A stretch of 49,385 nucleotides of DNA from Deltaproteobacteria bacterium. GTDB lineage: Bacteria > Myxococcota_A > UBA9160 > SMWR01. Shown here one piece after another: positions 6,149-45,656 of this stretch (its first letter is position 1; every line of letters begins with the position of its first letter). The notes under the pieces were generated by a model that saw only the letters and a list, made by a program, of their open reading frames with translations, had not been told where the DNA came from and ran no database searches. The stretch is from contig SMWR01000072.1 in the NCBI GenBank assembly GCA_004356735.1, positions 1-49,385 on the forward strand. The letters are read 5' to 3'. The translations under genes and the position numbers were made by a program.

Positions 6149-6199
6149 GATCCCCCCGTTTGTTGACCGGGCGTTCGGCCTTCCGGGCCGTACCCGCCC

Positions 6200-6796
6200 C
6201 TACCCGGCCGTCGCAATTCGTTGACTCGAGTCGACGTGCCCCAGGAAGGGCCGCCATTCTTCATAGCGCCCGTGCTGCGGCACCGCGAGGTTCACCAGAG
6301 GGGTCCAACGCGGGCGAACCGGCTTCCGATTCAATCGAAGCCTGGCCTGCATCGGCGTGCGCCCTCCCTTGCGCCGATTGCAGTCCACACAGCTACATAC
6401 CACGTTCTCCCACGACGTCTTGCCACCGAGTGCTCGAGGCACGACGTGGTCGAGATTCAGTTGAGATCGCGGCGGCTGTGAACCGCAATACTGACACGTG
6501 AACTTGTCTCGCGCGAAGATGTTGATGCGGCTGAAGCGCACGTGTCGCCTCGGAATCTTGTCGTATGCGAGCAGCACGATGACACGTGGGATCCGAATCG
6601 GACCGCTGCTCGTGCCGAGCGACGGCCCGAGTCCGTCGGCGGGAAATCTGCGCCATTGGTGGAAGTCGAATGACTGGTAGTCAGTGTGAACGGCACGGGC
6701 AATTTCCTGGTAGAGCATCGAGAACGCCCGGCGCACCGACGTGATGTGGATCGGTAGATAGGAACGATTCAGGACCAGGACGTTCGAGTCGAGCAT
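6200..6796 (-). CDS. HNH endonuclease family protein
   Basis: FTCQYCGSQPPRSQLNLDHVVPRALGGKTSWENVVCSCVDCNRRKGGRTP is an HNH/zinc-knuckle motif. ATG 6796 (MLDSNVLVLNRSYLPI) is preferred; the longest start is 6841. Confidence 0.8.
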   Translation of the reverse strand: MLDSNVLVLNRSYLPIHITSVRRAFSMLYQEIARAVHTDYQSFDFHQWRRFPADGLGPSLGTSSGPIRIPRVIVLLAYDKIPRRHVRFSRINIFARDKFTCQYCGSQPPRSQLNLDHVVPRALGGKTSWENVVCSCVDCNRRKGGRTPMQARLRLNRKPVRPRWTPLVNLAVPQHGRYEEWRPFLGHVDSSQRIATAG

Positions 6797-17471: not shown

Positions 17472-18257
17472 ATGAAGCAGTGGCTGCTCGAGCTGCGCGA
17501 GCTGATCCTGCCGACGGTCTGCGCGGGCTGTGGGAGGTCGGTCGAGCCCGCGACGGTCCTCTGTCCGCCTTGCGACGCGGCCCTGCCGCGGTTCGAGATT
17601 CCCGGGCCCACCCCGCCCGGACTCGACGCCTGCGTTGCGGCCGCCGAATATTCCGCGGCCACCGAGCTCTGGATTCGCCGCTTCAAGTATCCGAAGCCCG
17701 GCCTCGCCGGAATCGACACGGCTGCGGGAAGTGTCGTCCGCATGCTCGCGTGCGAGGCGGCAGCGCGTGCCCCGGGCGAACCGCCCGCTCTGGTGCTGCC
17801 GGTCCCGCTGCATCCCAGACGCCTTGCGGCCCGCGGTTTCAACCCGGCCGGCCTGCTGGCCCGGAGCGTGGCCAGAGCCGTGAGGATCCCGATGGATGCG
17901 CGCGCGCTGCGACGGATTCACGACACGCCGACCCAGACCGGGCTCGGTGCAGCGGATCGGCGCCGCAACGTTCGCGGTGCGTTTCGGGCGATGCGGTCGC
18001 TACCGCATGCGATCTGGCTCGTGGACGACGTGACCACCACCGGGAGCACGTTGTCCGAGATCGCTCGCGTCTGCCGCGCGGCCGGGGCGCGGCAGATCGT
18101 CGCTCTCTGCGCAGCAGCGACACCAGGCCCGAGGCAGGCGCCCGGGACGACGGCTGGCGTACAACAGGCGACATCCCCGTTGCCTGCTACGAACGGTTCC
18201 GAGAGGTCGTTTCGATCAGGACTTCACAGAGACGCTTCGGATCGACCGGCTTCTTGA
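17472..18257 (+). CDS. comF: ComF family protein (phosphoribosyltransferase domain)
   Basis: N-terminal CxxC..CxxC zinc motif (CAGCGRS..CPPCD), RGFNPA, PRTase motif WLVDDVTTTGSTL. The C-terminal ~45 aa overlaps the convergent gene by 71 nt, so the exact end is uncertain. Confidence 0.8.
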   Translation: MKQWLLELRELILPTVCAGCGRSVEPATVLCPPCDAALPRFEIPGPTPPGLDACVAAAEYSAATELWIRRFKYPKPGLAGIDTAAGSVVRMLACEAAARAPGEPPALVLPVPLHPRRLAARGFNPAGLLARSVARAVRIPMDARALRRIHDTPTQTGLGAADRRRNVRGAFRAMRSLPHAIWLVDDVTTTGSTLSEIARVCRAAGARQIVALCAAATPGPRQAPGTTAGVQQATSPLPATNGSERSFRSGLHRDASDRPAS

Positions 18258-19254
18258 AGATCACGCCTTCCAGGCCCTCGAGGCGACTGCGCTTGATCAC
18301 GTGATCCCGGTCGTAATGGAAGGCCGTCATCATCAGCACCGGCAGCTTCGGATGGCGCTGATGGATCGAGCGATACAGCTCATAACCGTCCATCTTGGGC
18401 ATCACGACGTCGGTGAGCACCACGTCGAACGGTGCGTTGTCGAGCTGTCGGAGACCCTCGACACCATCGCCTGCGGTTGAGACTTTGCAGCCCTCGATCT
18501 CCAGGACCTCCTTCATGGTGCGACAGATGCCCAGGTCGTCGTCCACTACCAGGATGCGTAGGCCTTCCAGACGATGATCCGACGCGGGCTCGTAATGGCG
18601 TCGCAGATCGATCATGCGCGACGGGCCCACGTACTGGATCGTCTCGTAGTGCTCGGTTTCCACCATCTGACCCAGGCGTTCGAGGATCTCGCTGATGCGT
18701 CCGATCTCTCGGCGCATGGCGTCGAGGCGCTCGGTCTCCACCGAGGAGTCGCTCTCGCCCGCCAGCCGGTTGATGTCACCCTCGAGTAGCTCGACCTGGT
18801 TGAGGATCACGGCCAGCGGGTTGTTGATTTCGTGGCTGACGCCGATCGCTACCTCACCGAGGGTGGCCAGCTGGTCCTTGCGCAGGATCTCGCGCAGGTC
18901 CTTGGCGAAGCCGATCGTACCATCTTCGCGTTCCTCATCGTCGGTGAGGATGGTTCCCGAAATCGCAACCGGAATTTCTTCACCCGTCTTGGAGAGGAAC
19001 GTGGTCAGGAAGGTCTCGACGATGCGCAAGCCGCCATATTCGGGACTGCGCATGGCGGCCATCACGCGCTTTGCCTCTTCGAGGCTGGGATAGAGCTGGG
19101 CCGAGTAGCGTCCGAGAATCTCATCCTGGGTGTAACCCAGGATCTTCGACGCCCCGTCGTTGTAGTACGAAACCATCCCCTTGCGGTCCGTGGCCACGAC
19201 GATGTCCGTGGACCGCGCGATCAGCTGCTCCAATCTCTCCTTCGTCAGCGCCAC
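18187..19254 (-). CDS. PAS - HisKA(DHp) - receiver protein lacking an HATPase_c domain
   Basis: PAS: IVVATDRKGMVSYYNDGASKILGY. H-box: LGEVAIGVSHEINNPLAVI. Receiver: RILVVDDDLGICR...VLTDVVMPKMDG...KKP. Only about 45 aa separate the DHp helices from the receiver. GTG start. Confidence 0.85.
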   Translation of the reverse strand: MALTKERLEQLIARSTDIVVATDRKGMVSYYNDGASKILGYTQDEILGRYSAQLYPSLEEAKRVMAAMRSPEYGGLRIVETFLTTFLSKTGEEIPVAISGTILTDDEEREDGTIGFAKDLREILRKDQLATLGEVAIGVSHEINNPLAVILNQVELLEGDINRLAGESDSSVETERLDAMRREIGRISEILERLGQMVETEHYETIQYVGPSRMIDLRRHYEPASDHRLEGLRILVVDDDLGICRTMKEVLEIEGCKVSTAGDGVEGLRQLDNAPFDVVLTDVVMPKMDGYELYRSIHQRHPKLPVLMMTAFHYDRDHVIKRSRLEGLEGVIFKKPVDPKRLCEVLIETTSRNRS

Positions 19255-22510: not shown

Positions 22511-23659
22511 TCAGAGGACCGGCTGCTTGGGGTTCTCGCCGGACTCGTAGTACTCCTCGACCTTGCGGCCGAGCTCGCCCACGCGCCCTGGGATCTGGTC
22601 GGGGAGAGGCCAGCGCGCCAACGCCACGCGCATCCGGTCCTGGAGCAGCTGGGCGTCGGGGTAGTCCTCGCTCGCGAGCGCCTGATCGACGTCGAGCCAA
22701 CTGTCGATGGCCGTCACGGTTCGGGACAGGCGTTCTTTGAGGTGGCCGAGACCCGGCGAGTCGATGTGGAGGCCGCTCACTTCTTTGCCAAGGGCCTGGA
22801 GCTCGCGGCGCGCCTCTTCCAAGACCGGCCGCAGCGACCCGGTCGCCTCCATGACCTGGCTGACGACGTCGTCGAAGCGCCGGCGCAGCGGCTCATGGGA
22901 GATTTCGCGAAGCAGGACCACCCGGCCAATGGTTTCGCCCGACGGGTCCGCCAGGTTGTTCACCGCAATCCGCATCCGGTAGGACCGATCCGCCAGGGTG
23001 ATGTCCACTTCCTCGAAGCTGCTCGTCTCGTCGTCCGCCAGCTTGTAGATCGTGCCGGCCATCTCCGAGAGACCGTGGGCATCCAACACCGACTTCAGCA
23101 GCTCACCACGGAGATCACCTTCGAGTGCGAGATAGTCCCGCAAGGGTCGGTTCGCAGCTTGCACCACGCCGTGCGAATCGACTGCCAGGGCGCCGGTGTC
23201 GAGCTGGTCCATCACTGCTTCGAGGTATACGTTGGCGTGTTGGAGATCCTTCAGTAGCCGTTCGTTCTCGGTCGACAGCTCGTAGTGGTTGACCGCCTGT
23301 CGCATCAGCTGCTTCAGGTGGTCGTGCTCCCAGGGCTTGGTGATGTAGGCGTAGACGTGGCCATCGTTGATGGATTCGATGATGGCGTCCATGTCGGCGA
23401 AGCCAGTCAGGATCATGCGGACCGTCGCGGGATGGCGCCGGCAGACCTCGGTCAGAAACTCAACACCGCTCATGTTCGGCATGCGCTGGTCGGTGAGAAC
23501 CGCGGCAAACGGTGCCTGGTCATCCAACTGCTCGAGCGCACGACGAGCGTCCGTCGAGGTATGGACGTCGTACTCGTCTTGGAAGGTAAAGGTCATCGTC
23601 TCGAGGATGGCTTCCTCGTCGTCGACGATGAGAATGCGGGGACGGGAATCGTCTGCCAT
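22511..23659 (-). CDS. response-regulator receiver - PAS-like - helical C-terminal domain protein
   Basis: Receiver: RILIVDDEEAILE..VLTDQRMPNMSG..ITKPW. PAS-like: LDTGALAVDSHGVVQAANRPL..GRVVLLREIS. ATG 23659 shares one base with the upstream TAA (TAATG); alternative GTG at 23665. Confidence 0.85.
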   Translation of the reverse strand: MADDSRPRILIVDDEEAILETMTFTFQDEYDVHTSTDARRALEQLDDQAPFAAVLTDQRMPNMSGVEFLTEVCRRHPATVRMILTGFADMDAIIESINDGHVYAYITKPWEHDHLKQLMRQAVNHYELSTENERLLKDLQHANVYLEAVMDQLDTGALAVDSHGVVQAANRPLRDYLALEGDLRGELLKSVLDAHGLSEMAGTIYKLADDETSSFEEVDITLADRSYRMRIAVNNLADPSGETIGRVVLLREISHEPLRRRFDDVVSQVMEATGSLRPVLEEARRELQALGKEVSGLHIDSPGLGHLKERLSRTVTAIDSWLDVDQALASEDYPDAQLLQDRMRVALARWPLPDQIPGRVGELGRKVEEYYESGENPKQPVL

Positions 23660-24225
23660 TACCACCCGAAGTAGCTGCCGGACTTCCTCTTGGTTGATTC
23701 TTTCGCGATTCGCTTCTCGATTTCCGCGCGAATCCGCCGGCGGTCGGCATCCAAGCGCTTGCTGAGACGATCGCTCCCCGGCTTCGCCCAGGGACGCTGC
23801 TCGGTGGAGTCGCGCAGGGCACGGAACTTCCGGTAGCCCCAGAGCTCGTGCCTGAACTCGTCCTCGATGAACTTGACCATGATGGCATCGTCGAGGAAAC
23901 CCAGCCCGGGAATGTGATCGGGAATCAGGTCGTCCGGGTTCGAAAAGTAGGCGATTCCGGCGAGAACGTCGTTACGCACCTTCTTGGACGCCGCCCAGCC
24001 GTCGTCCTGGATGAGATCGGCCAGATCGGCCAACACGGAGATGGCGTCGGACACGAACTTGGGCGTCCTCTTGTTGGCGTGGACTTGCTTGACGATCGCC
24101 CGAGCGTCCCTGATGATCGTCACAGCGTCGAGGTCCTTGGCACCCCGCTTGGCCTTCCGGTAGATCGACCGGAAGTACTTGGCGTCCTCCTCATCCAACG
24201 TGAATGTGACCTTGAACTTGGACAT
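23659..24225 (-). CDS. DUF1232 (YkvA-like) domain protein, soluble variant
   Basis: DDLIPDHIPGLGFLDDAIMV matches the DUF1232 signature (DLIPDFIPviGylDD). No TM helix follows. Strong SD GAGGAGG 5 nt before the ATG. Confidence 0.7.
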   Translation of the reverse strand: MSKFKVTFTLDEEDAKYFRSIYRKAKRGAKDLDAVTIIRDARAIVKQVHANKRTPKFVSDAISVLADLADLIQDDGWAASKKVRNDVLAGIAYFSNPDDLIPDHIPGLGFLDDAIMVKFIEDEFRHELWGYRKFRALRDSTEQRPWAKPGSDRLSKRLDADRRRIRAEIEKRIAKESTKRKSGSYFGW

Positions 24226-33372: not shown

Positions 33373-33558
33373 GCGTGAGTGGAATGGAGTGGACGGGGCC
33401 GCGAGAAAGGGGTGCAATGGGCTTCTCAATAATCCCGTTGAGAGTGGAAACTTGCATTTTCACGGATCCGGCTGGCCGCCTTTCGCCTGAAGGACTGACC
33501 CTTTTCTTTCAAGGGCTTCGGGTGTGGAGTTGCGGCTTGGGCACGGGCGTCCTGCCGC

Positions 33559-33573
33559 TGGCACAGGGATTGC
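33559..33573 (+). promoter_or_regulatory. sigma-54 (RpoN) -24/-12 promoter
   Basis: TGGCAC-AGGGA-TTGC matches TGGCAC-N5-TTGC exactly. It lies 80 nt upstream of ATG 33653, in a 500-nt divergent intergenic region. Confidence 0.75.
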
Positions 33574-33652
33574 CGTAGCAGGCACTGGAGGCGTTCGCGC
33601 GGAGGCCGACGGAGGTTGTGGGTCGCAGCGCGGAACTGCCGGTTTCGAAGCC

Positions 33653-35695
33653 ATGACATCACTCTGGATCGTGCATCGCGAGCCCTACTTCCGGGCCGCC
33701 CTCGGGCGGCTGGCGGCGGCCTCCGGTTCGGTCCTCGAGGGCCCCCCGGGCGACGCTTGCTTCGACCCGGAACGGGCTCCCGAGGTGGTCGTGCTGGGTC
33801 TCTCGGGCGACCTGGAGAGCGAGCTCGAGTTCGCCCACCGCACCGCACCGCGAATGCGCCTGACGGGCTGGGTCGCGGTGGCCGAGCGGCACCGGCTCGA
33901 GTTCGCGAGGCAGCTCTTCGACACGCTGCCAGCGGAGTTCCTGATCTGGCCACCCCAAGCCACGGTGCTGCGCGATGCCATCCGGCGCGCGGCCCTGCGC
34001 GGCAGCGAATCGCCGCTGGCGCTCTCGATGCGACCCGAACGCGACGCCCTGAGTGAGCACTTCGCCCGCGCCTTCGCGGATCTCGAGATGCCCGGGCTGC
34101 TGCGGGCCATGGACCCGCGTCTGCTCCAGGTACCCCTGCTGATCCGGGGCGAGCCGGGCACCGGCCGCGAGACCCTGGCCCGCTACGTACACCGCTTCGG
34201 GCCCACCGCACGCGGTCCGCTGGTGCAGATCGTGAGCCGACGGGATTCGACGGCCTCTGGCCTGCTGGAGCGGATCGATGCAGCGCTTCGCGACCGCGCG
34301 ACCTCACGCATCACCACCTTCTGGCTGCAGGACGCGGACCAGCTCGACCCTGCGGTGCAATGCGAAGTCGCCGGATGGATCGCCTACGGACTACCCGCGG
34401 GGACGCCCCGAGCCAGCACCGTGCGTTGGATCGTGAGCAGCCAACCGGTGGGCCTGACGGTGGAGCTGCAGCGCTGCGCCGGCGGGCTCTCGATCGAAAT
34501 CCCGCCGCTGCGCGATCGTTCCCACGCCATCGCCCATCTCGCCAGCAGCACGGCGCTGGCCTGGTGTAGCAGCCGGGGCCTGCGGCCGCGCCGCATCGAC
34601 GAGTATGCGCTCTTCGAGCTGAGCGAGTATCCGTGGCCGGGCAATCTCGGCGAGCTCGAAGCCGTAATCGCGCAATCACTGGCCGCGACGGCGCGCGATC
34701 CCCTCAAGACCGAAGACCTGATCCTCGACGGCGAGCCCTTCGCCGCCGTCGACGCCGAGTCGCTGGGTAGCCTGCTCGATTCCGACGAGGCCAGCGACGA
34801 GGCCAGCGACGAAGCCACCCGCATCGCGGTCGTCGAGGCAGATGCCGCCGAAGCAGCGACCGATGAGCCCCCGGCGGAGCTGATCACCGAGATGGAGGAG
34901 GTCGCGATTCCGATCGAGGCGCTCGAGGGCAGCGCAGCCGCCCCCGAACCCGCAGGGGTGACGCAGGCCGCCCTGCCGGAGCTCGAGACCGTAATCGCCG
35001 AGCCGGCGACTCCCATCGGCGAAGCCTGGCTGAAGCGGCTCTCGGGAGCCATGAGTCACGAGGTGCGCAACCCGCTCACGGCCCTCCGCACCTTCACACA
35101 GCTCCTGCCCGAACGCCATGCCGACGAAGAATTCCGAGACCGTTTCGCTCAATACGCCGCCGAGGGTCTCGACAGAATCGAGGGAGTCCTGACCGGGCTC
35201 GACCGCTTGGCGGCGTTCCGAGAGCCAGAGCCGCGCCCCGTGGACGTGGGACGCATGCTCGAGGAGCTGCTCGACAAACGGCGGAACACGATCCACGAGC
35301 GACGCCTGCTGGTGCTCGAGGAGCTCGACCGCAGCTGGCCCGAGGCCATCGGCGATCCGGAGCAACTGCGGTTCGCGTTCGAATCGCTGCTCGACAAGGC
35401 CCTCGAGCTCGTCCCGGAGCGCGGCGACCTCTACATCGCATCGAAGCGCCACGAGTCGGGTCTGCGCTCGCAGCCGAGCGTTCGGATCCTGCTGCGCTAT
35501 CGCGGTCCCGAAGCTGGCGACGCAGCAGCCCAGATCACCGATCTCTCGCCGGCCGCGAACGCACTGGCATTCGCCATCGCCGAGCTGCTCGTGCAGGCAC
35601 AGCACGGCAGCTTCGCCCTCGACACCAGCGACCGCAACGAGACCCTGGTCGTGATCGACCTGCCCGCCGAAAGCGTGAAGACGGGGGCGGCCTAA
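33653..35695 (+). CDS. fusion protein: degenerate NtrC-like AAA+ (sigma-54 interaction) module plus HisKA with a degenerate ATP-binding domain
   Basis: AAA+ part: LLIRGEPGTGRE (Walker A Lys replaced by Arg), no GAFTGA loop, Walker B region TFWLQDADQL, but the signature YPWPGNLGELEAVI is kept. An acidic linker follows (SDEASDEASDEA). H-box: LSGAMSHEVRNPLTAL. CA region: LLDKALE (N-box Asn replaced by Lys), no DxGxG, and ANALAFAIAELLVQAQHG in place of GxGLGLaIv..iv..HgG. Confidence 0.8.
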   Translation: MTSLWIVHREPYFRAALGRLAAASGSVLEGPPGDACFDPERAPEVVVLGLSGDLESELEFAHRTAPRMRLTGWVAVAERHRLEFARQLFDTLPAEFLIWPPQATVLRDAIRRAALRGSESPLALSMRPERDALSEHFARAFADLEMPGLLRAMDPRLLQVPLLIRGEPGTGRETLARYVHRFGPTARGPLVQIVSRRDSTASGLLERIDAALRDRATSRITTFWLQDADQLDPAVQCEVAGWIAYGLPAGTPRASTVRWIVSSQPVGLTVELQRCAGGLSIEIPPLRDRSHAIAHLASSTALAWCSSRGLRPRRIDEYALFELSEYPWPGNLGELEAVIAQSLAATARDPLKTEDLILDGEPFAAVDAESLGSLLDSDEASDEASDEATRIAVVEADAAEAATDEPPAELITEMEEVAIPIEALEGSAAAPEPAGVTQAALPELETVIAEPATPIGEAWLKRLSGAMSHEVRNPLTALRTFTQLLPERHADEEFRDRFAQYAAEGLDRIEGVLTGLDRLAAFREPEPRPVDVGRMLEELLDKRRNTIHERRLLVLEELDRSWPEAIGDPEQLRFAFESLLDKALELVPERGDLYIASKRHESGLRSQPSVRILLRYRGPEAGDAAAQITDLSPAANALAFAIAELLVQAQHGSFALDTSDRNETLVVIDLPAESVKTGAA

Positions 35696-35822: not shown

Positions 35823-37199
<1,377 letters not shown>

Positions 37200-37229: not shown

Positions 37230-37285
37230 GTGCACCGGCGGTCATGCCGGTCCGCGCGTGCACCGGCGGTCACGCCGGCCCGGTC
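37230..37285 (+). repeat. two tandem 28-bp repeats, candidate enhancer (UAS) for the sigma-54 promoter at 37473
   Basis: GTGCACCGGCGGTCATGCCGGTCCGCGC / GTGCACCGGCGGTCACGCCGGCCCGGTC (24/28 identical). Each contains the inverted repeat CCGGC-N7-GCCGG. They lie 190-245 bp upstream of the -24 box. An AT-rich patch (about 37311-37350) lies between them and the promoter. Confidence 0.55.
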
Positions 37286-37472
37286 CGGGTGTTCCGATCG
37301 GAACAGGTCGGAAAAGTCAATTATTGCAGTGAGTTATCTTGAATTCTTGGATCCTCCGTACACATCGGAACAGCTGCCGCCTGTGTCGGCCACATCACGA
37401 GCCGTCGCCCAAACGTCCCAGACTCCTTGAATTTCAAGCGCTTGAGACGCTGCCTGCTGGTTTTCCTGCGGC

Positions 37473-37488
37473 TGGCACAGGCCTTGCT
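37473..37488 (+). promoter_or_regulatory. sigma-54 (RpoN) -24/-12 promoter
   Basis: TGGCAC-AGGCC-TTGCT is an exact TGGCAC-N5-TTGCW consensus. Its -12 element (37484-37488) ends 44 nt upstream of ATG 37532. Confidence 0.8.
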
Positions 37489-37531
37489 CTAGAGATCCGC
37501 GAAGCGGCGGGAAAAACCATCGAGGCACCCC

Positions 37532-38722
37532 ATGGCAGATCGAGACCGACGACCCACGATCCTGGTGGCCGACGACGAGCGCGGGCCGCGCGAGTCGCTG
37601 CGCATGATCCTGGAACCCACTCACAAAGTTCTCCAGGCCGAGAGCGGAGTGGAAGCGCTCGAGATCCTCCGCACCGAGTCCGTCGATCTGCTCACTCTCG
37701 ATCTCAACATGCCCGGCATGAAGGGCGAGGAAGTGATGCGCACGGTTCGGGCCGAGTATCCGAACGTCGAGATCATCGTGATCACGGGCTGCGGCACGGT
37801 CGAGAGTGCTGCGGAAGGCGTCCGCTACGGGATCTGCGATTACCTTCAGAAGCCATTCGACGTTGTGGCGGTAACGGCGGCCGTGATGCGCGCTCTGATA
37901 CGACGCCGTTCGCGTTCGCGGCTGACGAGCTTCCTGGAAGAACTCGGACAGGTGATGGGCCGCGACACCGACGTGCATCGGCTGCTGGGTGACGTGGAGA
38001 AGAGCCAGAAGCTCCGCGGTCGCCTGGCCGGACTCTTCAGCGAGAGCGGCGGGCCCGGCCCGGACGAAAAAGCCCAGAATGAGCGGGCGCGCAGCGTCGA
38101 GTTCCTCGAGGTTCTGGCCGAGACGATCGAGACCAAGGACCGCTTCATGCGCGGCCACGCCCGGCGCGTCGCCTTCTACGCAAGCCTGATGGCCGACCGC
38201 CTGAATCTCGGCGCCCAGGAGCGGGAAGAGGTCCGCATGGCGGCCTTCCTCCACGACCTGGGCAAGGTCGGTGTGCCAACTGACCTGCTGCTCTGTACAA
38301 CCGCGCTCACACCGGAAGAACGCACCATCGTTGAGGAGCATCCGATCATCGGCGCGCGACTCGTGAAGCCCCTCGACATCCCGACGTCGATCGGGCTGGC
38401 GATCCACCATCACCACGAATGGTGGGATGGCACGGGTTATCCCGATGGGCTGGCCGGCGAGGAGATCCCGCTGACGGCGCGGATCATCGGCGTCGTCGAC
38501 GCCTTCGACGCCATGAACTCGGACCGCCCCTATCGACGGGCGCTCGACCGGACGCTCGTGATCGCCGAGCTCGAACGTTGCGGCGGGACGCAGTTTGACC
38601 CGGTCCTCGCCAAGGAGTTCGTGGTGCTCCTGGAGACTGGCGTCTGCGATCTGGACCCGGCGCTGCTGGCGAACCTGGTCGGCGACACAGACCGCGCCCG
38701 TACGGCAACGACATCACAGTAG
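37532..38722 (+). CDS. response regulator with HD-GYP domain (RpfG-like c-di-GMP phosphodiesterase)
   Basis: Receiver: ILVADDERGPRE..LTLDLNMPGMKG..LQKPF. HD-GYP: RGHARRVA..FLHDLGKVGVP..EEHPIIG..IHHHHEWWDGTGYPDGL..DAFDAMNSDRPYR. Confidence 0.92.
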   Translation: MADRDRRPTILVADDERGPRESLRMILEPTHKVLQAESGVEALEILRTESVDLLTLDLNMPGMKGEEVMRTVRAEYPNVEIIVITGCGTVESAAEGVRYGICDYLQKPFDVVAVTAAVMRALIRRRSRSRLTSFLEELGQVMGRDTDVHRLLGDVEKSQKLRGRLAGLFSESGGPGPDEKAQNERARSVEFLEVLAETIETKDRFMRGHARRVAFYASLMADRLNLGAQEREEVRMAAFLHDLGKVGVPTDLLLCTTALTPEERTIVEEHPIIGARLVKPLDIPTSIGLAIHHHHEWWDGTGYPDGLAGEEIPLTARIIGVVDAFDAMNSDRPYRRALDRTLVIAELERCGGTQFDPVLAKEFVVLLETGVCDLDPALLANLVGDTDRARTATTSQ

Positions 38723-38742
38723 CCAGGGGGAGGAGCAAAGAC

Positions 38743-39129
38743 ATGGCAGCGAACACCGAACCTCTCGCCTTCTCGTTGGATGCAGTCCGACCGCAGCGCA
38801 TCCGGTGCGAGCCGCGTGCCGACACGGTCCGTATCGTTCACTACACACGCTTCCCGCGCATGGGCCCTGACTCGGCGTGGCGCGTCGGCTTCAGCCGCGA
38901 TCTGTCGGCCTATGGCCTCTGCATCGGCGCGGACGATCCGGAGGGACCGGGAAGCCTGCTGCGCGTGATCATCCGCGAGATCGACGGCCGTGCGACGCGA
39001 CCCAGCATCGTCCGGGTGGCCTGGTGCGCCGAAGCCGGAGACGACCGCTACTGGATCGGGCTCGAGCAGCTCACGGTCGGCCCCACCGCGGCCCGGGAAA
39101 CAGGCAACGCAGTCGATGCTTCGCTTTGA
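38743..39129 (+). CDS. PilZ-domain-like protein (128 aa)
   Basis: RIRCEPR (RxxxR), then 29 residues later DLSAYG (DxSxxG), the two c-di-GMP-binding PilZ motifs at normal spacing. Strong SD GGGGGAGGAG 7 nt before the ATG. Starts 20 nt after the HD-GYP gene stop. Confidence 0.65.
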   Translation: MAANTEPLAFSLDAVRPQRIRCEPRADTVRIVHYTRFPRMGPDSAWRVGFSRDLSAYGLCIGADDPEGPGSLLRVIIREIDGRATRPSIVRVAWCAEAGDDRYWIGLEQLTVGPTAARETGNAVDASL

Positions 39130-39490
39130 CCAAGGGGGGCGTTCGAGGAGGTCCCGGGCAGGGAACACCTGGGGCCTCCTCGAAACCTTGACCCGAAGCG
39201 CCACGCTTTCACCCTGGGGAAACTGCGGCGGGCATCGAGCGACTGCTCGAGGCCTCCCGGTCCATCCCCTGGTCAGAACTCCCGAGCCGGCACAAGTGAG
39301 ATGAGAGGTTGGACAGTCCTGGGGTGATCGAAGGGGCCCCGCACCGCATCACGGGGCCTCTTCGACATCCTCGCCAACGCCTCATCGGTCGGGCGCCGGG
39401 ACCGGGGTTGAGGCCGAGTGCGTGCCGGCGGCGGCGCCTGATCGAACCCGATCGGGACTTCCAGAGTCTGATCGGAAGGACTCCTGGGGC

Positions 39491-39541
39491 GCAGCTGCGG
39501 GCGAGCCGGCCTCCAGCCGGCTCGCCCGCAGCTGCGTTTTT
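39491..39541 (+). terminator. strong Rho-independent terminator (20-bp perfect stem, 5-nt loop, T5 tail)
   Basis: GCAGCTGCGGGCGAGCCGGC-CTCCA-GCCGGCTCGCCCGCAGCTGC followed by G-TTTTT (39537-39541). Ends 20 nt upstream of the tatA/B ATG. Confidence 0.85.
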
Positions 39542-39560
39542 GGGGCTAATCTCTGCCTCG

Positions 39561-39860
39561 ATGTTTGGCATCGGGATGACGGAGCTGATGGTGATCCTCG
39601 TGATCGCCCTGCTGGTACTGGGGCCCAAGCGGCTGCCCGAGATGGCGCGGTCGCTCGGCAAGGGTCTCACCGAGTTCCGCCGTGCTTCCGGGGACTTGCG
39701 CCGGGAGTTCACGGCCGTTGCCGACCAAGCCCGGATCGACCCCGCGGACCTGAACTCGGACGAAGACACGGCCTCGAACGGGGACAGGCCGGCTGGCGAG
39801 ACGGCTGCCCCCGCGAAGACACCGGCGGAGACGGAGCCCCAGACTCCCAGCGATGGATGA
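39561..39860 (+). CDS. tatB: twin-arginine translocase TatA/TatB family subunit
   Basis: MFGIGMTELMVILVIALLVLGPKRLPEMARSLGKGL, then an amphipathic region and an acidic tail. The N-terminus looks more TatB-like (MF.IG..EL, GP.RLP). Overlaps the tatC start by 8 nt. Confidence 0.85.
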   Translation: MFGIGMTELMVILVIALLVLGPKRLPEMARSLGKGLTEFRRASGDLRREFTAVADQARIDPADLNSDEDTASNGDRPAGETAAPAKTPAETEPQTPSDG

Positions 39861-44369: not shown

Positions 44370-45656
44370 CTACATGTTGGAGAGGATGGCACTCGTCTTG
44401 CTCAGCTGGTGGCCGTATTCGACAATGTCGATCTTCCGGCGAGCGACACCCGAGTCCATCGCAGCCTGGGCGACTGCGGGAACCACGTAAGTCAGGAGCC
44501 TGGGATCAAACGGCTTCGGAATCAGGTAGTTGGGGCCAAGCTCGAAGTTCTCGTTGCCGTAGGCATCGCGCACGATCTGGGGAACGACCTTGCCCCGCTT
44601 GGCCAGCTCGGCGAGCGCCCGCGCACACGCAACCTTCATGGGCTCGTTGATCCTGCTAGCCTGGACATCGAGCGCGCCGCGGAAGATGAACGGGAAGCCC
44701 AGCACGTTGTTCACCTGGTTCGGGTAGTCCGAGCGCCCGGTGGCGACGATGGCGTCGTCGCGGACTTGGCGGACCTGGTCGGGCGTGATCTCGGGGTCCG
44801 GGTTCGCCATGGCGAAGATGATGGGTTTCGGCGCCATGCTGCGAACCATGTCGGCGGTCACCAGACCGGCCTGGGAGAGGCCGCAGAACACATCAGCGTT
44901 CTTGATCGCTTCGGCCAGGGTGCGAGCTGAAGTCTTGTGCTGGAACTCGGCCTTGTACTTGTTGATGGCCGCAGTGCGTCCTTCGTAGATCACGCCGTGG
45001 CTATCGCACAGGATCATGTTCTCGACCGGGACGCCCAGGCCGCGGTAGAAGCGGGCACAGCCGATGCCGGCGGCGCCGGCGCCCGAGAAGACGATCCGGA
45101 TCTCTTCGAGCTGCTTGCCCGTGATCTCCAGGGCGTTCAGCAGGGCGGCGCCGGAGATGATGGCGGTGCCGTGTTGATCGTCGTGAAAGACCGGGATGTC
45201 GAGGCTCTCGATCAGGCGTTCCTCGATCTCGAAGCACTCAGGGGAGCGGATGTCTTCCAGGTTGATCCCGCCGAACGTCGGCGCGATGCACTCGATGGTG
45301 CGGACGATCTCATCCACGTCCTGACTGTCGAGCTCGATGTCAAAGACATCGACGTCTGCGAAGCGCTTGAACAGAACGGCCTTGCCTTCCATCACCGGCT
45401 TGCCGGCCAAGGCGCCGATGTTGCCGAGGCCGAGCACGGCACTGCCGTTGCTGACCACGCACACCAGATTGCCCTTGATGGTGTAATCGTAGGCACGCGA
45501 CGGATCCTTGGCGATCTCGCGGCAGGGCTCCGCCACGCCGGGGGTATACGCCAGCGCGAGATCCTCCTGGGTCTCCGTGGGCTTGGTCGGCACGACCTTG
45601 AGCTTCCCCGGTCGGCCCTCACGGTGGTAGGCGAGGGCCTGCTCTCTGGTGATCAC
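44370..45656 (-). CDS. NAD(P)-dependent malic enzyme, short form (no phosphotransacetylase-like domain)
   Basis: [72 protein letters not shown]. Confidence 0.9.

Follow-up and report, generated by a model that had tools for sequence, protein, structure and literature searches.

A predicted sigma-54-dependent REC-HD-GYP/PilZ operon with conserved upstream dyads beside an NtrC-type activator gene in an uncultured Myxococcota lineage

In contig SMWR01000072.1 (GenBank assembly GCA_004356735.1) of a deltaproteobacterial genome assigned by GTDB to Myxococcota_A, a gene for an NtrC-type activator is followed by genes for a REC-HD-GYP response regulator and a small PilZ-type protein. The whole stretch that was analyzed, 49,385 nucleotides read on the forward strand, is referred to as the window. 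This gene order raises the question of whether the activator controls the two genes that follow it, from which promoter and through which binding sites. The original prediction, made from the letters of the window alone, proposed that two tandem 28-bp repeats serve as activator sites for a sigma-54 promoter that drives genes for the degradation and sensing of cyclic di-GMP (c-di-GMP). Comparison with orthologous loci makes it quite probable that the two genes form a sigma-54-dependent operon, encoding a REC-HD-GYP phosphodiesterase and a single-domain PilZ receptor, and that this operon is controlled by the activator encoded immediately upstream. The activator would act through a pair of conserved dyads and not through the repeats.

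The sigma-54 promoter downstream of the activator gene

About 30 orthologous loci were obtained from three sources: exact-protein look-ups, a scan of GTDB genomes, and a scan of metagenomes. They are metagenome-assembled genomes and metagenome contigs labeled mostly as Myxococcales, Deltaproteobacteria, or Myxococcota, and single loci are designated by the letter L and a number. The identity of their PilZ proteins to that of the window ranges from 98% down to 44%. In the window, thyX (minus strand) is followed by a kinase-like gene (33653-35695), the genes for the activator, the REC-HD-GYP protein, and the PilZ protein, tatA (39561 onward), and tatC. The order from the kinase-like gene to tatC is kept among the orthologous loci.

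The activator is an NtrC-type enhancer-binding protein (EBP) encoded on the plus strand at 35823-37199, as the original prediction had it. It is composed of a REC domain, an AAA+ Sigma54_activat domain (Pfam, 1.3e-72), an AAA lid, and an HTH_8 domain. The Walker A motif GESGTGK and the ESELFGH motif are intact. The L1 loop reads GAFTDA, a natural variant listed as compatible with activation (PMC4641369). Among the EBP orthologues, the canonical GAFTGA loop was found only in L009 and L031. The EBPs of these two contigs, which belong to the same lineage, carry a collagen-like (PQG)n tail after the helix-turn-helix (HTH) domain (in L009 at about 6150-6324), and the tail differs in length between them.

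The sequence TGGCACAGGCCTTGCT was read on the plus strand at 37473-37488. It is the predicted exact -24/-12 consensus TGGCAC-N5-TTGCT, with AGGCC as the spacer, and its GG and GC doublets are exactly 10 bp apart. Transcription is predicted to start near 37498-37500. The Shine-Dalgarno sequence GAGG that had been noted in the leader is located at 37522-37525, 6 nt before the ATG of the HD-GYP gene at 37532. Exact TGGCAC-N5-TTGCW sequences occur twice in the window, compared to 0.02 expected from shuffles, and four matches were obtained against 0.81 expected when one mismatch was allowed.

Comparison of the loci revealed [TC]GGCAC-N5-TTGC[TG] at the equivalent place in every locus with DNA upstream of the HD-GYP gene, that is, in more than 20 loci, including those whose PilZ protein is only 44 to 59% identical to that of the window. 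On the same strand of the whole 14-kb loci, the only other such sites precede the kinase-like gene. An alignment of 15 non-redundant intergenic regions showed conserved blocks only at the upstream dyads, at two C...TTG boxes, and at the -24/-12 element. This conservation in position and sequence across distant orthologous loci supports 37473-37488 as a genuine sigma-54 promoter, and with it the original proposal that such a promoter, lying directly downstream of the NtrC-type activator gene, drives the REC-HD-GYP and PilZ genes.

Two further observations concern this type of element. The -24/-12 element and the predicted start are enclosed by a 13-nt inverted repeat, TTTTCCTGCGGCT (37461-37473) and AGCGGCGGGAAAA (37503-37515), whose arms are 85% complementary. 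This repeat is present in the close relatives of the window and not in distant loci. A second exact sigma-54 consensus, TGGCACTCGTCTTGCT, is located at 44387-44402 (plus strand), where two minus-strand genes (carboxyltransferase and malic enzyme) meet. It is followed by no plus-strand gene. It was rejected as a functional promoter and taken as a probable chance match because neither L001 nor L003 conserves its -24 half.

Tandem repeats, conserved dyads, and IHF-like boxes

The two tandem 28-bp GC-rich repeats (37230-37257 and 37258-37285, plus strand) are real: the window contains their 21-nt core, GTGCACCGGCGGTCAYGCCGG, at these two places and at no other, with 0.01 occurrences expected. They begin, as described, 31 nt past the last base of the stop codon of the activator gene (TGA, 37197-37199), and they are located upstream of the promoter, at a distance that has to be corrected from 190-245 bp to 188-243 bp. 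The spacing of their dyads, given as N7, is in fact N6, as in (A)CCGGC-N6-GCCGG(T), with CCGGC at 37235-37239 and GCCGG at 37246-37250 in the first copy.

The assignment of these repeats as upstream activating sequences (UAS) was not sustained by the comparison, since they are absent or degraded in all relatives except the near-identical contig L035. That contig (98% identical, PilZ protein 98%) has the same two copies, and the duplication was otherwise found only in the window. L011 and L012, whose PilZ proteins are about 80% and whose intergenic DNA is about 85% identical to those of the window, have one repeat unit fewer; the dyad of the remaining copy, CGTCCACCGCTAGTCACGCCGG, is destroyed. 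Across the lineages, the distance from the activator stop codon to the first conserved element amounts to 0, 4, 6, 14, 18, 19, 28, 35-38, 61, or 90 nt, with unrelated sequence in this interval. Because L011 and L012 retain a single broken copy and the other lineages have an unrelated spacer of 0 to 90 nt, the repeats appear to be a recent duplication in a variable spacer. By this comparison they are a non-conserved, hairpin-forming sequence, private to the window and its near twin, that is located outside the conserved enhancer and is probably not an enhancer itself.

A function of the repeats as an intrinsic terminator of the activator gene is weakly suggested. Copy 1 alone folds as RNA with -16.6 kcal/mol (z = -3.1), while neither copy 2 nor the whole 93-nt repeat region surpasses shuffled sequences in folding (z = 0.7 and -0.4, respectively). 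No U-tract follows the repeats, and hairpins past the activator stop codon are present in some lineages only.

Just downstream of the repeats, a perfect 16-bp palindrome, TGTTCCGATCGGAACA, was found at 37290-37305 (UAS1) and is proposed as a site for an activator dimer. A second dyad, CGTACACATCGGAACA, at 37357-37372 (UAS2), is strong in its right half-site and degenerate on the left. Equivalents of both, with the consensus TGTTCC-N4-GGAACA, are present in every locus with upstream DNA. In all loci UAS1 is positioned 174 to 186 bp (mostly 183 to 185 bp) upstream of the -24 element, and UAS2 is positioned 67 to 69 bp downstream of UAS1. UAS2 is a perfect dyad in L007, L008, L024, and L032. Within the window and the nine loci L001 to L009 (about five distinct contigs), this intergenic region alone contains the exact sequence TGTTC-N6-GAACA. 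When the window and 10 loci were scanned with a dyad matrix, all matches of at least 13.9 bits fell into this intergenic region, and three weak ones (11 to 12.8 bits) were located elsewhere; the matrix was built from the sites and is hence circular for them, so that the scarcity of other matches is the informative part.

A UAS is expected to have dyad symmetry, to be conserved together with its regulator, and to be located about 80 to 250 bp upstream of the -24/-12 element. This combination was found for TGTTCC-N4-GGAACA and not for the 28-bp repeats. The dyad also fits, in a formal sense, the NifA-type pattern TGT-N10-ACA. A literature search on the dyad sequence returned only eukaryotic C/EBP papers. 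The EBP orthologues keep the C-terminal HTH helix WNQTRAAxQLxxTRRxLKLKMDR, and we infer that the neighboring activator binds the TGTTCC-N4-GGAACA dyads. Comparative footprinting can thus overturn an assignment made on a single sequence: the striking repeat turned out to be evolutionary noise, and the modest palindrome adjoining it is the conserved element. This corrects the choice of DNA for binding and reporter work.

The cassette of activator, dyads, promoter, and target genes is modular in evolution. In L037 (2858-5933), tatA and tatC directly follow the kinase-like gene, and the EBP, HD-GYP, and PilZ genes are missing. No dyads are present in this locus, and its sole sigma-54 site is the one before its kinase-like gene. 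The joint absence of the activator, the upstream sites, the promoter, and the PilZ gene fits a single functional unit. Four loci of two lineages (L009, L030, L031, and L038; L009 4804-7322, L038 7001-12333) have the EBP and PilZ genes and lack the HD-GYP gene. Since the same dyads and the same promoter are located directly before the PilZ gene in these four loci, PilZ is the constant output and HD-GYP a frequent companion. Within the cassette, the PilZ gene is positioned just upstream of tatA-tatC.

The predicted AT-rich patch at about 37311-37350 was confirmed in part. A 40-nt segment at 37312-37351 has a GC content of 0.30, the lowest in all 49 kb (window mean, 0.656). It is not the only AT-rich patch of the locus, since a second one (33421-33467; GC content, 0.375) is located upstream of the kinase-like gene and its promoter. 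Nor does it lie between the enhancer and the promoter; its position is between the two conserved dyads. The best match to WATCAR-N4-TTR, the pattern used for integration host factor (IHF), was determined in two zones of 15 loci. In 11 of the 15 loci, the best match within the zone between the dyads is found at -149 to -151 from the -24 element and has the same orientation. In the window, this match is box A at 37324-37336 (plus strand), TTGCAGTGAGTTA, with two mismatches and a shuffle fraction of 0.62; it lies within the AT-rich segment 37297-37362, midway between the dyads. In the zone upstream of the promoter, the best match is located at -40 to -42 from the -24 element, again on the same strand, in 12 of the 15 loci. 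The window has here box B at 37432-37444 (plus strand), TTTCAAGCGCTTG, with one mismatch and a shuffle fraction of 0.02; its center lies about 60 bp before the predicted start of transcription. The match in L001, AATCAGAAGCTTG, is perfect. Conserved C and TTG columns in the intergenic alignment add to the argument for such boxes. Box B, in the usual position, looks like the better IHF-like box, and an involvement of IHF is plausible.

Three other explanations of this intergenic region were weighed. The consensus match at 37473-37488 might be due to chance, and transcription might start from an unrecognized sigma-70-type promoter or result from read-through from the activator gene. The consensus at 44387 demonstrates that exact matches are possible without function, as it sits unconserved in coding sequence, and a clear terminator was not found after the activator gene. 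The element at 37473-37488, however, has been retained in more than 20 loci in which the intergenic sequence around it diverges, and no sigma-70-like promoter was detected around it, which makes this explanation extremely unlikely. Only slightly more credit can be given to the proposal that the 28-bp repeats (37230-37285) are the activator binding sites and that the AT-rich patch forms an IHF bend between them and the promoter. The repeats are unique in the window and dyad-symmetric, and their distance from the promoter is compatible with an enhancer. Against this stand the restriction of the duplication to the window and L035 and the single copy with a broken dyad in L011 and L012 at about 85% intergenic identity; moreover, the more distant loci have 0 to 38 nt of unrelated sequence at this place and yet keep the promoter and an orthologous activator with a conserved DNA-binding helix. 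The proposal is therefore very improbable.

It is likewise unlikely, if less so, that the dyads are bound by another transcription factor or that the promoter is served by a distant EBP, the activator gene being adjacent through shared ancestry only. The whole synteny from thyX to tatC is conserved, so that adjacency alone is weak evidence, and the neighboring promoter at 33559, which is without such a dyad, must respond to a different input. In L037, however, the activator, dyads, promoter, and PilZ gene are jointly absent while the flanking kinase-like and tat genes remain. NtrC-type sites typically show dyad symmetry and precede a sigma-54 promoter, as these dyads do, and the conservation of the recognition helix parallels that of the site. 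Binding of the dyads by the activator encoded next to them is thus preferred.

The HD-GYP and PilZ proteins and the limits of the operon

The first gene of the predicted operon (37532-38722, plus strand) encodes a REC-HD-GYP response regulator (Pfam HD_5, 8.3e-40; Response_reg, 8.2e-24), which is probably a cyclic-dinucleotide phosphodiesterase. Its motifs are intact, with HDLGK at residue 241 and HHHHEWWDGTGYP at residue 292. The best NCBIfam match was a NosR-family REC c-di-GMP phosphodiesterase with 203.7 bits, below the 400-bit cut-off; no equivalog-level NCBIfam name was obtained for any of the four proteins (kinase-like, EBP, HD-GYP, and PilZ). In three of the compared loci (L011, about 1799; L012, about 6686; L026, about 2179), the signature HHExxDGxGYP reads HHEWWNGxGYP. 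This exchange of Asp for Asn may affect metal binding or activity.

The second gene (38743-39129, plus strand) starts 20 nt after the first, is preceded by GGAGG at 38729-38733, and encodes a single-domain PilZ-type protein of 128 amino acids, a probable c-di-GMP receptor. In L001 the two genes overlap. The small protein with RxxxR...DxSxxG motifs that had been predicted at this place was found as described, with RCEPR at residues 21-25 and DLSAYG at residues 53-58. Its homologues are few but clear and were used to build an alignment of the PilZ family. The residues R21, R25, D53, S55, and G58 are invariant in this alignment, and the motifs are kept in more than 20 orthologous loci. All 10 family members that were compared with Pfam matched PilZ and no other family (best E-value, 1.5e-6), and a precomputed PF07238 match exists for six of nine database homologues. 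The PilZ assignment holds at the family level.

The AlphaFold model of the 128-amino-acid protein contains six strands, with a predicted local distance difference test (pLDDT) score of 77 to 87 over most of residues 31-110 and of 69 for residues 51-60. A Foldseek search against the PDB returned solved PilZ domains at ranks 1 to 13, and 23 of the 50 listed matches were PilZ domains (among them Alg44, XCC PilZ, MotI/DgrA, BcsA, and PP4397). The matches at ranks 1 to 13 had a probability of 1.00, template modeling (TM) scores of 0.43 to 0.55, and E-values from 3e-3. With moderate confidence, the model thus suggests a PilZ-like six-stranded beta-barrel fold. The HD-GYP protein most likely degrades c-di-GMP, and the PilZ protein most likely senses it.

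Downstream of the PilZ gene, a conserved 17-bp GC-rich stem-loop (39142-39184, plus strand; -40.1 kcal/mol, z = -2.74) marks the probable 3' end of the operon. It is preceded by an invariant GGGGGG run (39136-39184 in the window, including the stem-loop) and recurs in L001 (8365-8432), L006 (7372-7445), L009 (6925-6990), L018 (603-675), L020 (7360-7425), and L027 (3312-3378), with compensatory changes at six base pairs. It has no U-tract and no Rfam match, and it could be a terminator, a stabilizer, or a leader element of tatA. Two further strong hairpins are located between PilZ and tatA, at 39328-39367 and in the region 39490-39561 (plus strand). The last hairpin before tatA is a canonical terminator (39490-39536), with a 20-bp stem and a T5 tract, that ends 25 nt before the ATG at 39561. 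Given the stem-loop after PilZ and the terminator before tatA, the transcription unit most likely comprises two genes only. A TGCTAnnnT box resembling an extended -10 element was observed 8 to 15 nt before the tatA start in many loci, which hints at a very short-leader or leaderless tatA mRNA.

The proposed circuit and its kinase-like neighbor

In the circuit that is proposed for this locus, the phosphorylated activator would bind as dimers to the two dyads, centered about 200 and about 133 bp upstream of the predicted start. The dyads are about 6.5 helical turns apart and flank the AT-rich segment with one IHF-like box, and the second box is located at about -60. Bending at these boxes would allow the assembled AAA+ ring to meet the sigma-54 holoenzyme at 37473-37488, and ATP hydrolysis by the activator would open the promoter. 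The transcript from about 37498 would carry both genes behind good ribosome-binding sites and extend to the stem-loop at 39142-39184. Under the control of its own receiver domain, the HD-GYP protein would then lower the level of c-di-GMP, and the PilZ protein would read this level and pass the signal to a partner. The circuit builds on direct observations, namely, the sequence elements with their conservation and fixed spacing, their co-occurrence with the activator gene, and the domain content and motif integrity of the proteins.

Several results weigh against this interpretation. No rpoN gene is present within the window, so that sigma-54 itself is only inferred. UAS2 of the window scores 17 bits compared to 27.9 bits for UAS1 and consists of one half-site and a weak left arm. 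The center-to-center spacing of 67 to 69 bp is unusual for NtrC-type enhancers, the sites of which are usually 10 to 30 bp apart (14 to 15 bp in the case of NmpR; PMC11841059). The IHF-like boxes are individually weak (0 to 3 mismatches), and many are no better than shuffled sequence; their function is for this reason argued solely from constant position and strand. The predicted agreement of the 128-amino-acid protein with PilZ profiles held for its family, but the protein of the window itself scores 18.5 bits against PF07238, below the 22.5-bit cut-off of Pfam. When the PilZ alignment served as a profile against PDB sequences, only noise was returned (E of at least 0.56), so that the fold comparison was needed, and the confidence of the model used there is moderate (pLDDT of 66 overall; Foldseek E of about 3e-3).

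A last point concerns the nucleotide. HD-GYP enzymes of Myxococcota can prefer 3',3'-cyclic GMP-AMP (3',3'-cGAMP), as does PmxA of Myxococcus xanthus, which is more active on this molecule than on c-di-GMP (PMC8844925). The operon might accordingly act on 3',3'-cGAMP or another dinucleotide, with a PmxA-like HD-GYP protein and a PilZ-type protein that is a non-binding adaptor. The two substrates are not separable by sequence. The invariance of RxxxR and DxSxxG in the PilZ family, however, argues for selection on ligand binding, and co-transcription with a PilZ receptor points to c-di-GMP. Action on another dinucleotide is therefore considered rather unlikely, and c-di-GMP is favored as the nucleotide of this operon.

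The proposed circuit resembles other NtrC-type units, such as glnAp2/NtrC and NmpR of M. xanthus (PMC11841059), in having a regulator with REC, AAA+, and Fis-type HTH domains, two upstream dyad sites, a -24/-12 promoter, and a target operon adjoining the regulator gene. It differs in the sequence of the sites, which is GCGCA-N5-TGCGC for NmpR (PMC11841059) and TGTTCC-N4-GGAACA here, in the wide spacing of the sites with an IHF-like box at the center, and in the GAFTDA loop. In Desulfovibrio vulgaris, a histidine kinase, an HD-GYP response regulator, and a sigma-54 EBP are encoded in one operon (DVU2931-DVU2934; PMC3333781). A two-component sigma-54 activator is likewise linked there to a REC-HD-GYP protein, in a lineage of deltaproteobacterial type. 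The D. vulgaris HD-GYP protein, however, is a co-encoded second output of the same kinase (PMC3333781), whereas here it is the predicted transcriptional target of the EBP, and the adjoining "kinase" of the window, unlike that of D. vulgaris, is without an ATP-binding domain. PmxA and the PilZ proteins PlpA, PixA, and PixB of M. xanthus represent the same protein families within the same phylum, in which stand-alone PilZ proteins are frequent, but pmxA is controlled by the CRP-like regulator MrpC and not by a sigma-54 EBP (PMC8844925, PMC8316039). The likeness is at the family level.

RpfG of Xanthomonas is likewise a REC-HD-GYP response regulator in which the HD and GYP motifs are intact. It interacts with PilZ adaptor proteins. 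In contrast to RpfG, the HD-GYP protein studied here is predicted to be co-transcribed with its PilZ partner from a sigma-54 promoter, and no rpf/diffusible signal factor (DSF) context is present. A functional pairing of the HD-GYP protein and the single-domain PilZ protein, deduced here from gene order only, is plausible. In the literature on HD-GYP, PilZ, and sigma-54 combined, no description of this arrangement was found. The circuit is nevertheless ordinary in kind: its components all belong to well-known families, and it involves no new principle. Just two aspects are unusual: the wide spacing of the dyads around a central IHF-like box, and the neighbor that resembles both a pseudo-kinase and a pseudo-EBP. 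The locus would be one more case of sigma-54 two-component signaling wired to the turnover and sensing of c-di-GMP. For this uncultured Myxococcota lineage, the analysis yields a precise regulatory map that shows the promoter, the sites of binding and bending, the limits of the operon, and the probable regulator.

The kinase-like neighbor (33653-35695, plus strand) is composed of a pseudo-receiver, a degenerate EBP-type AAA+ domain, an AAA lid, HisKA, and a C-terminal domain. The pseudo-receiver reads LWIVHRE. In an alignment of 28 homologues, the Walker A motif GEPGTGR, with Arg in place of Lys, does not vary, and at least 90% of the sequences retain the H-box histidine. The conserved C-terminal domain gave no HATPase_c match even at an E-value of 10 or below, and it contains no N, G1, or G2 boxes; the protein is therefore unlikely to autophosphorylate. 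The family comprises at least 390 clusters, often misnamed "NtrC family response regulator"; those names that bear a taxon all refer to Myxococcota, except for one that reads just "bacterium." By its domains, the protein resembles a relic EBP joined to the core of a kinase.

The kinase-like gene has its own sigma-54 element, TGGCACAGGGATTGCC (33559-33574, plus strand), with one mismatch, about 80 nt upstream of the gene. The element is conserved at this distance among the loci; an equivalent is present upstream of the orthologous gene in L001, L006, L007, L008, and L009, and it persists in L037, which has no EBP gene. Autoregulation of this promoter through the dyads was considered and rejected; since no TGTTCC dyad is located nearby, the promoter must answer to another activator.

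The original prediction had included a two-tier phosphorelay, which is possible. The receiver domains of the EBP and of the HD-GYP protein are 38% identical, and in all loci helix alpha-1 of both contains G[VP]RESLRM[LI]L (RESLRL in both receivers of L027), which is compatible with a shared phosphodonor. The kinase-like protein, however, has no recognizable ATP-binding domain. A wider reading would join all parts into one Myxococcota-specific unit of activator, IHF-bent split enhancer, sigma-54 promoter, optional HD-GYP, and PilZ as the true output, with the neighbor as a phosphotransfer or anti-activator partner. The neighbor would then not be a kinase; it could join or dock on the AAA+ ring of the activator and feed phosphate to both receiver domains that share the alpha-1 RESLRM motif. 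If true, the unit would form a feed-forward loop with a fossil EBP, joined to a kinase core, at its center, but the reading is regarded as unlikely.

The rest of the window is ordinary chromosome, with rho, selA, RNase E/G, proB/proA-like genes, iPGM, thyX, tatA/tatC, acyl-CoA carboxylase, and malic enzyme. A scan of the whole window against Rfam at gathering thresholds gave no match. Two atypical signaling proteins are encoded on the minus strand. The first (18187-19254) is a PAS-HisKA-REC protein of 355 amino acids that appears to be without an ATP-binding domain, because just about 40 residues separate HisKA from REC. The second (22511-23665) has a REC-PAS architecture.

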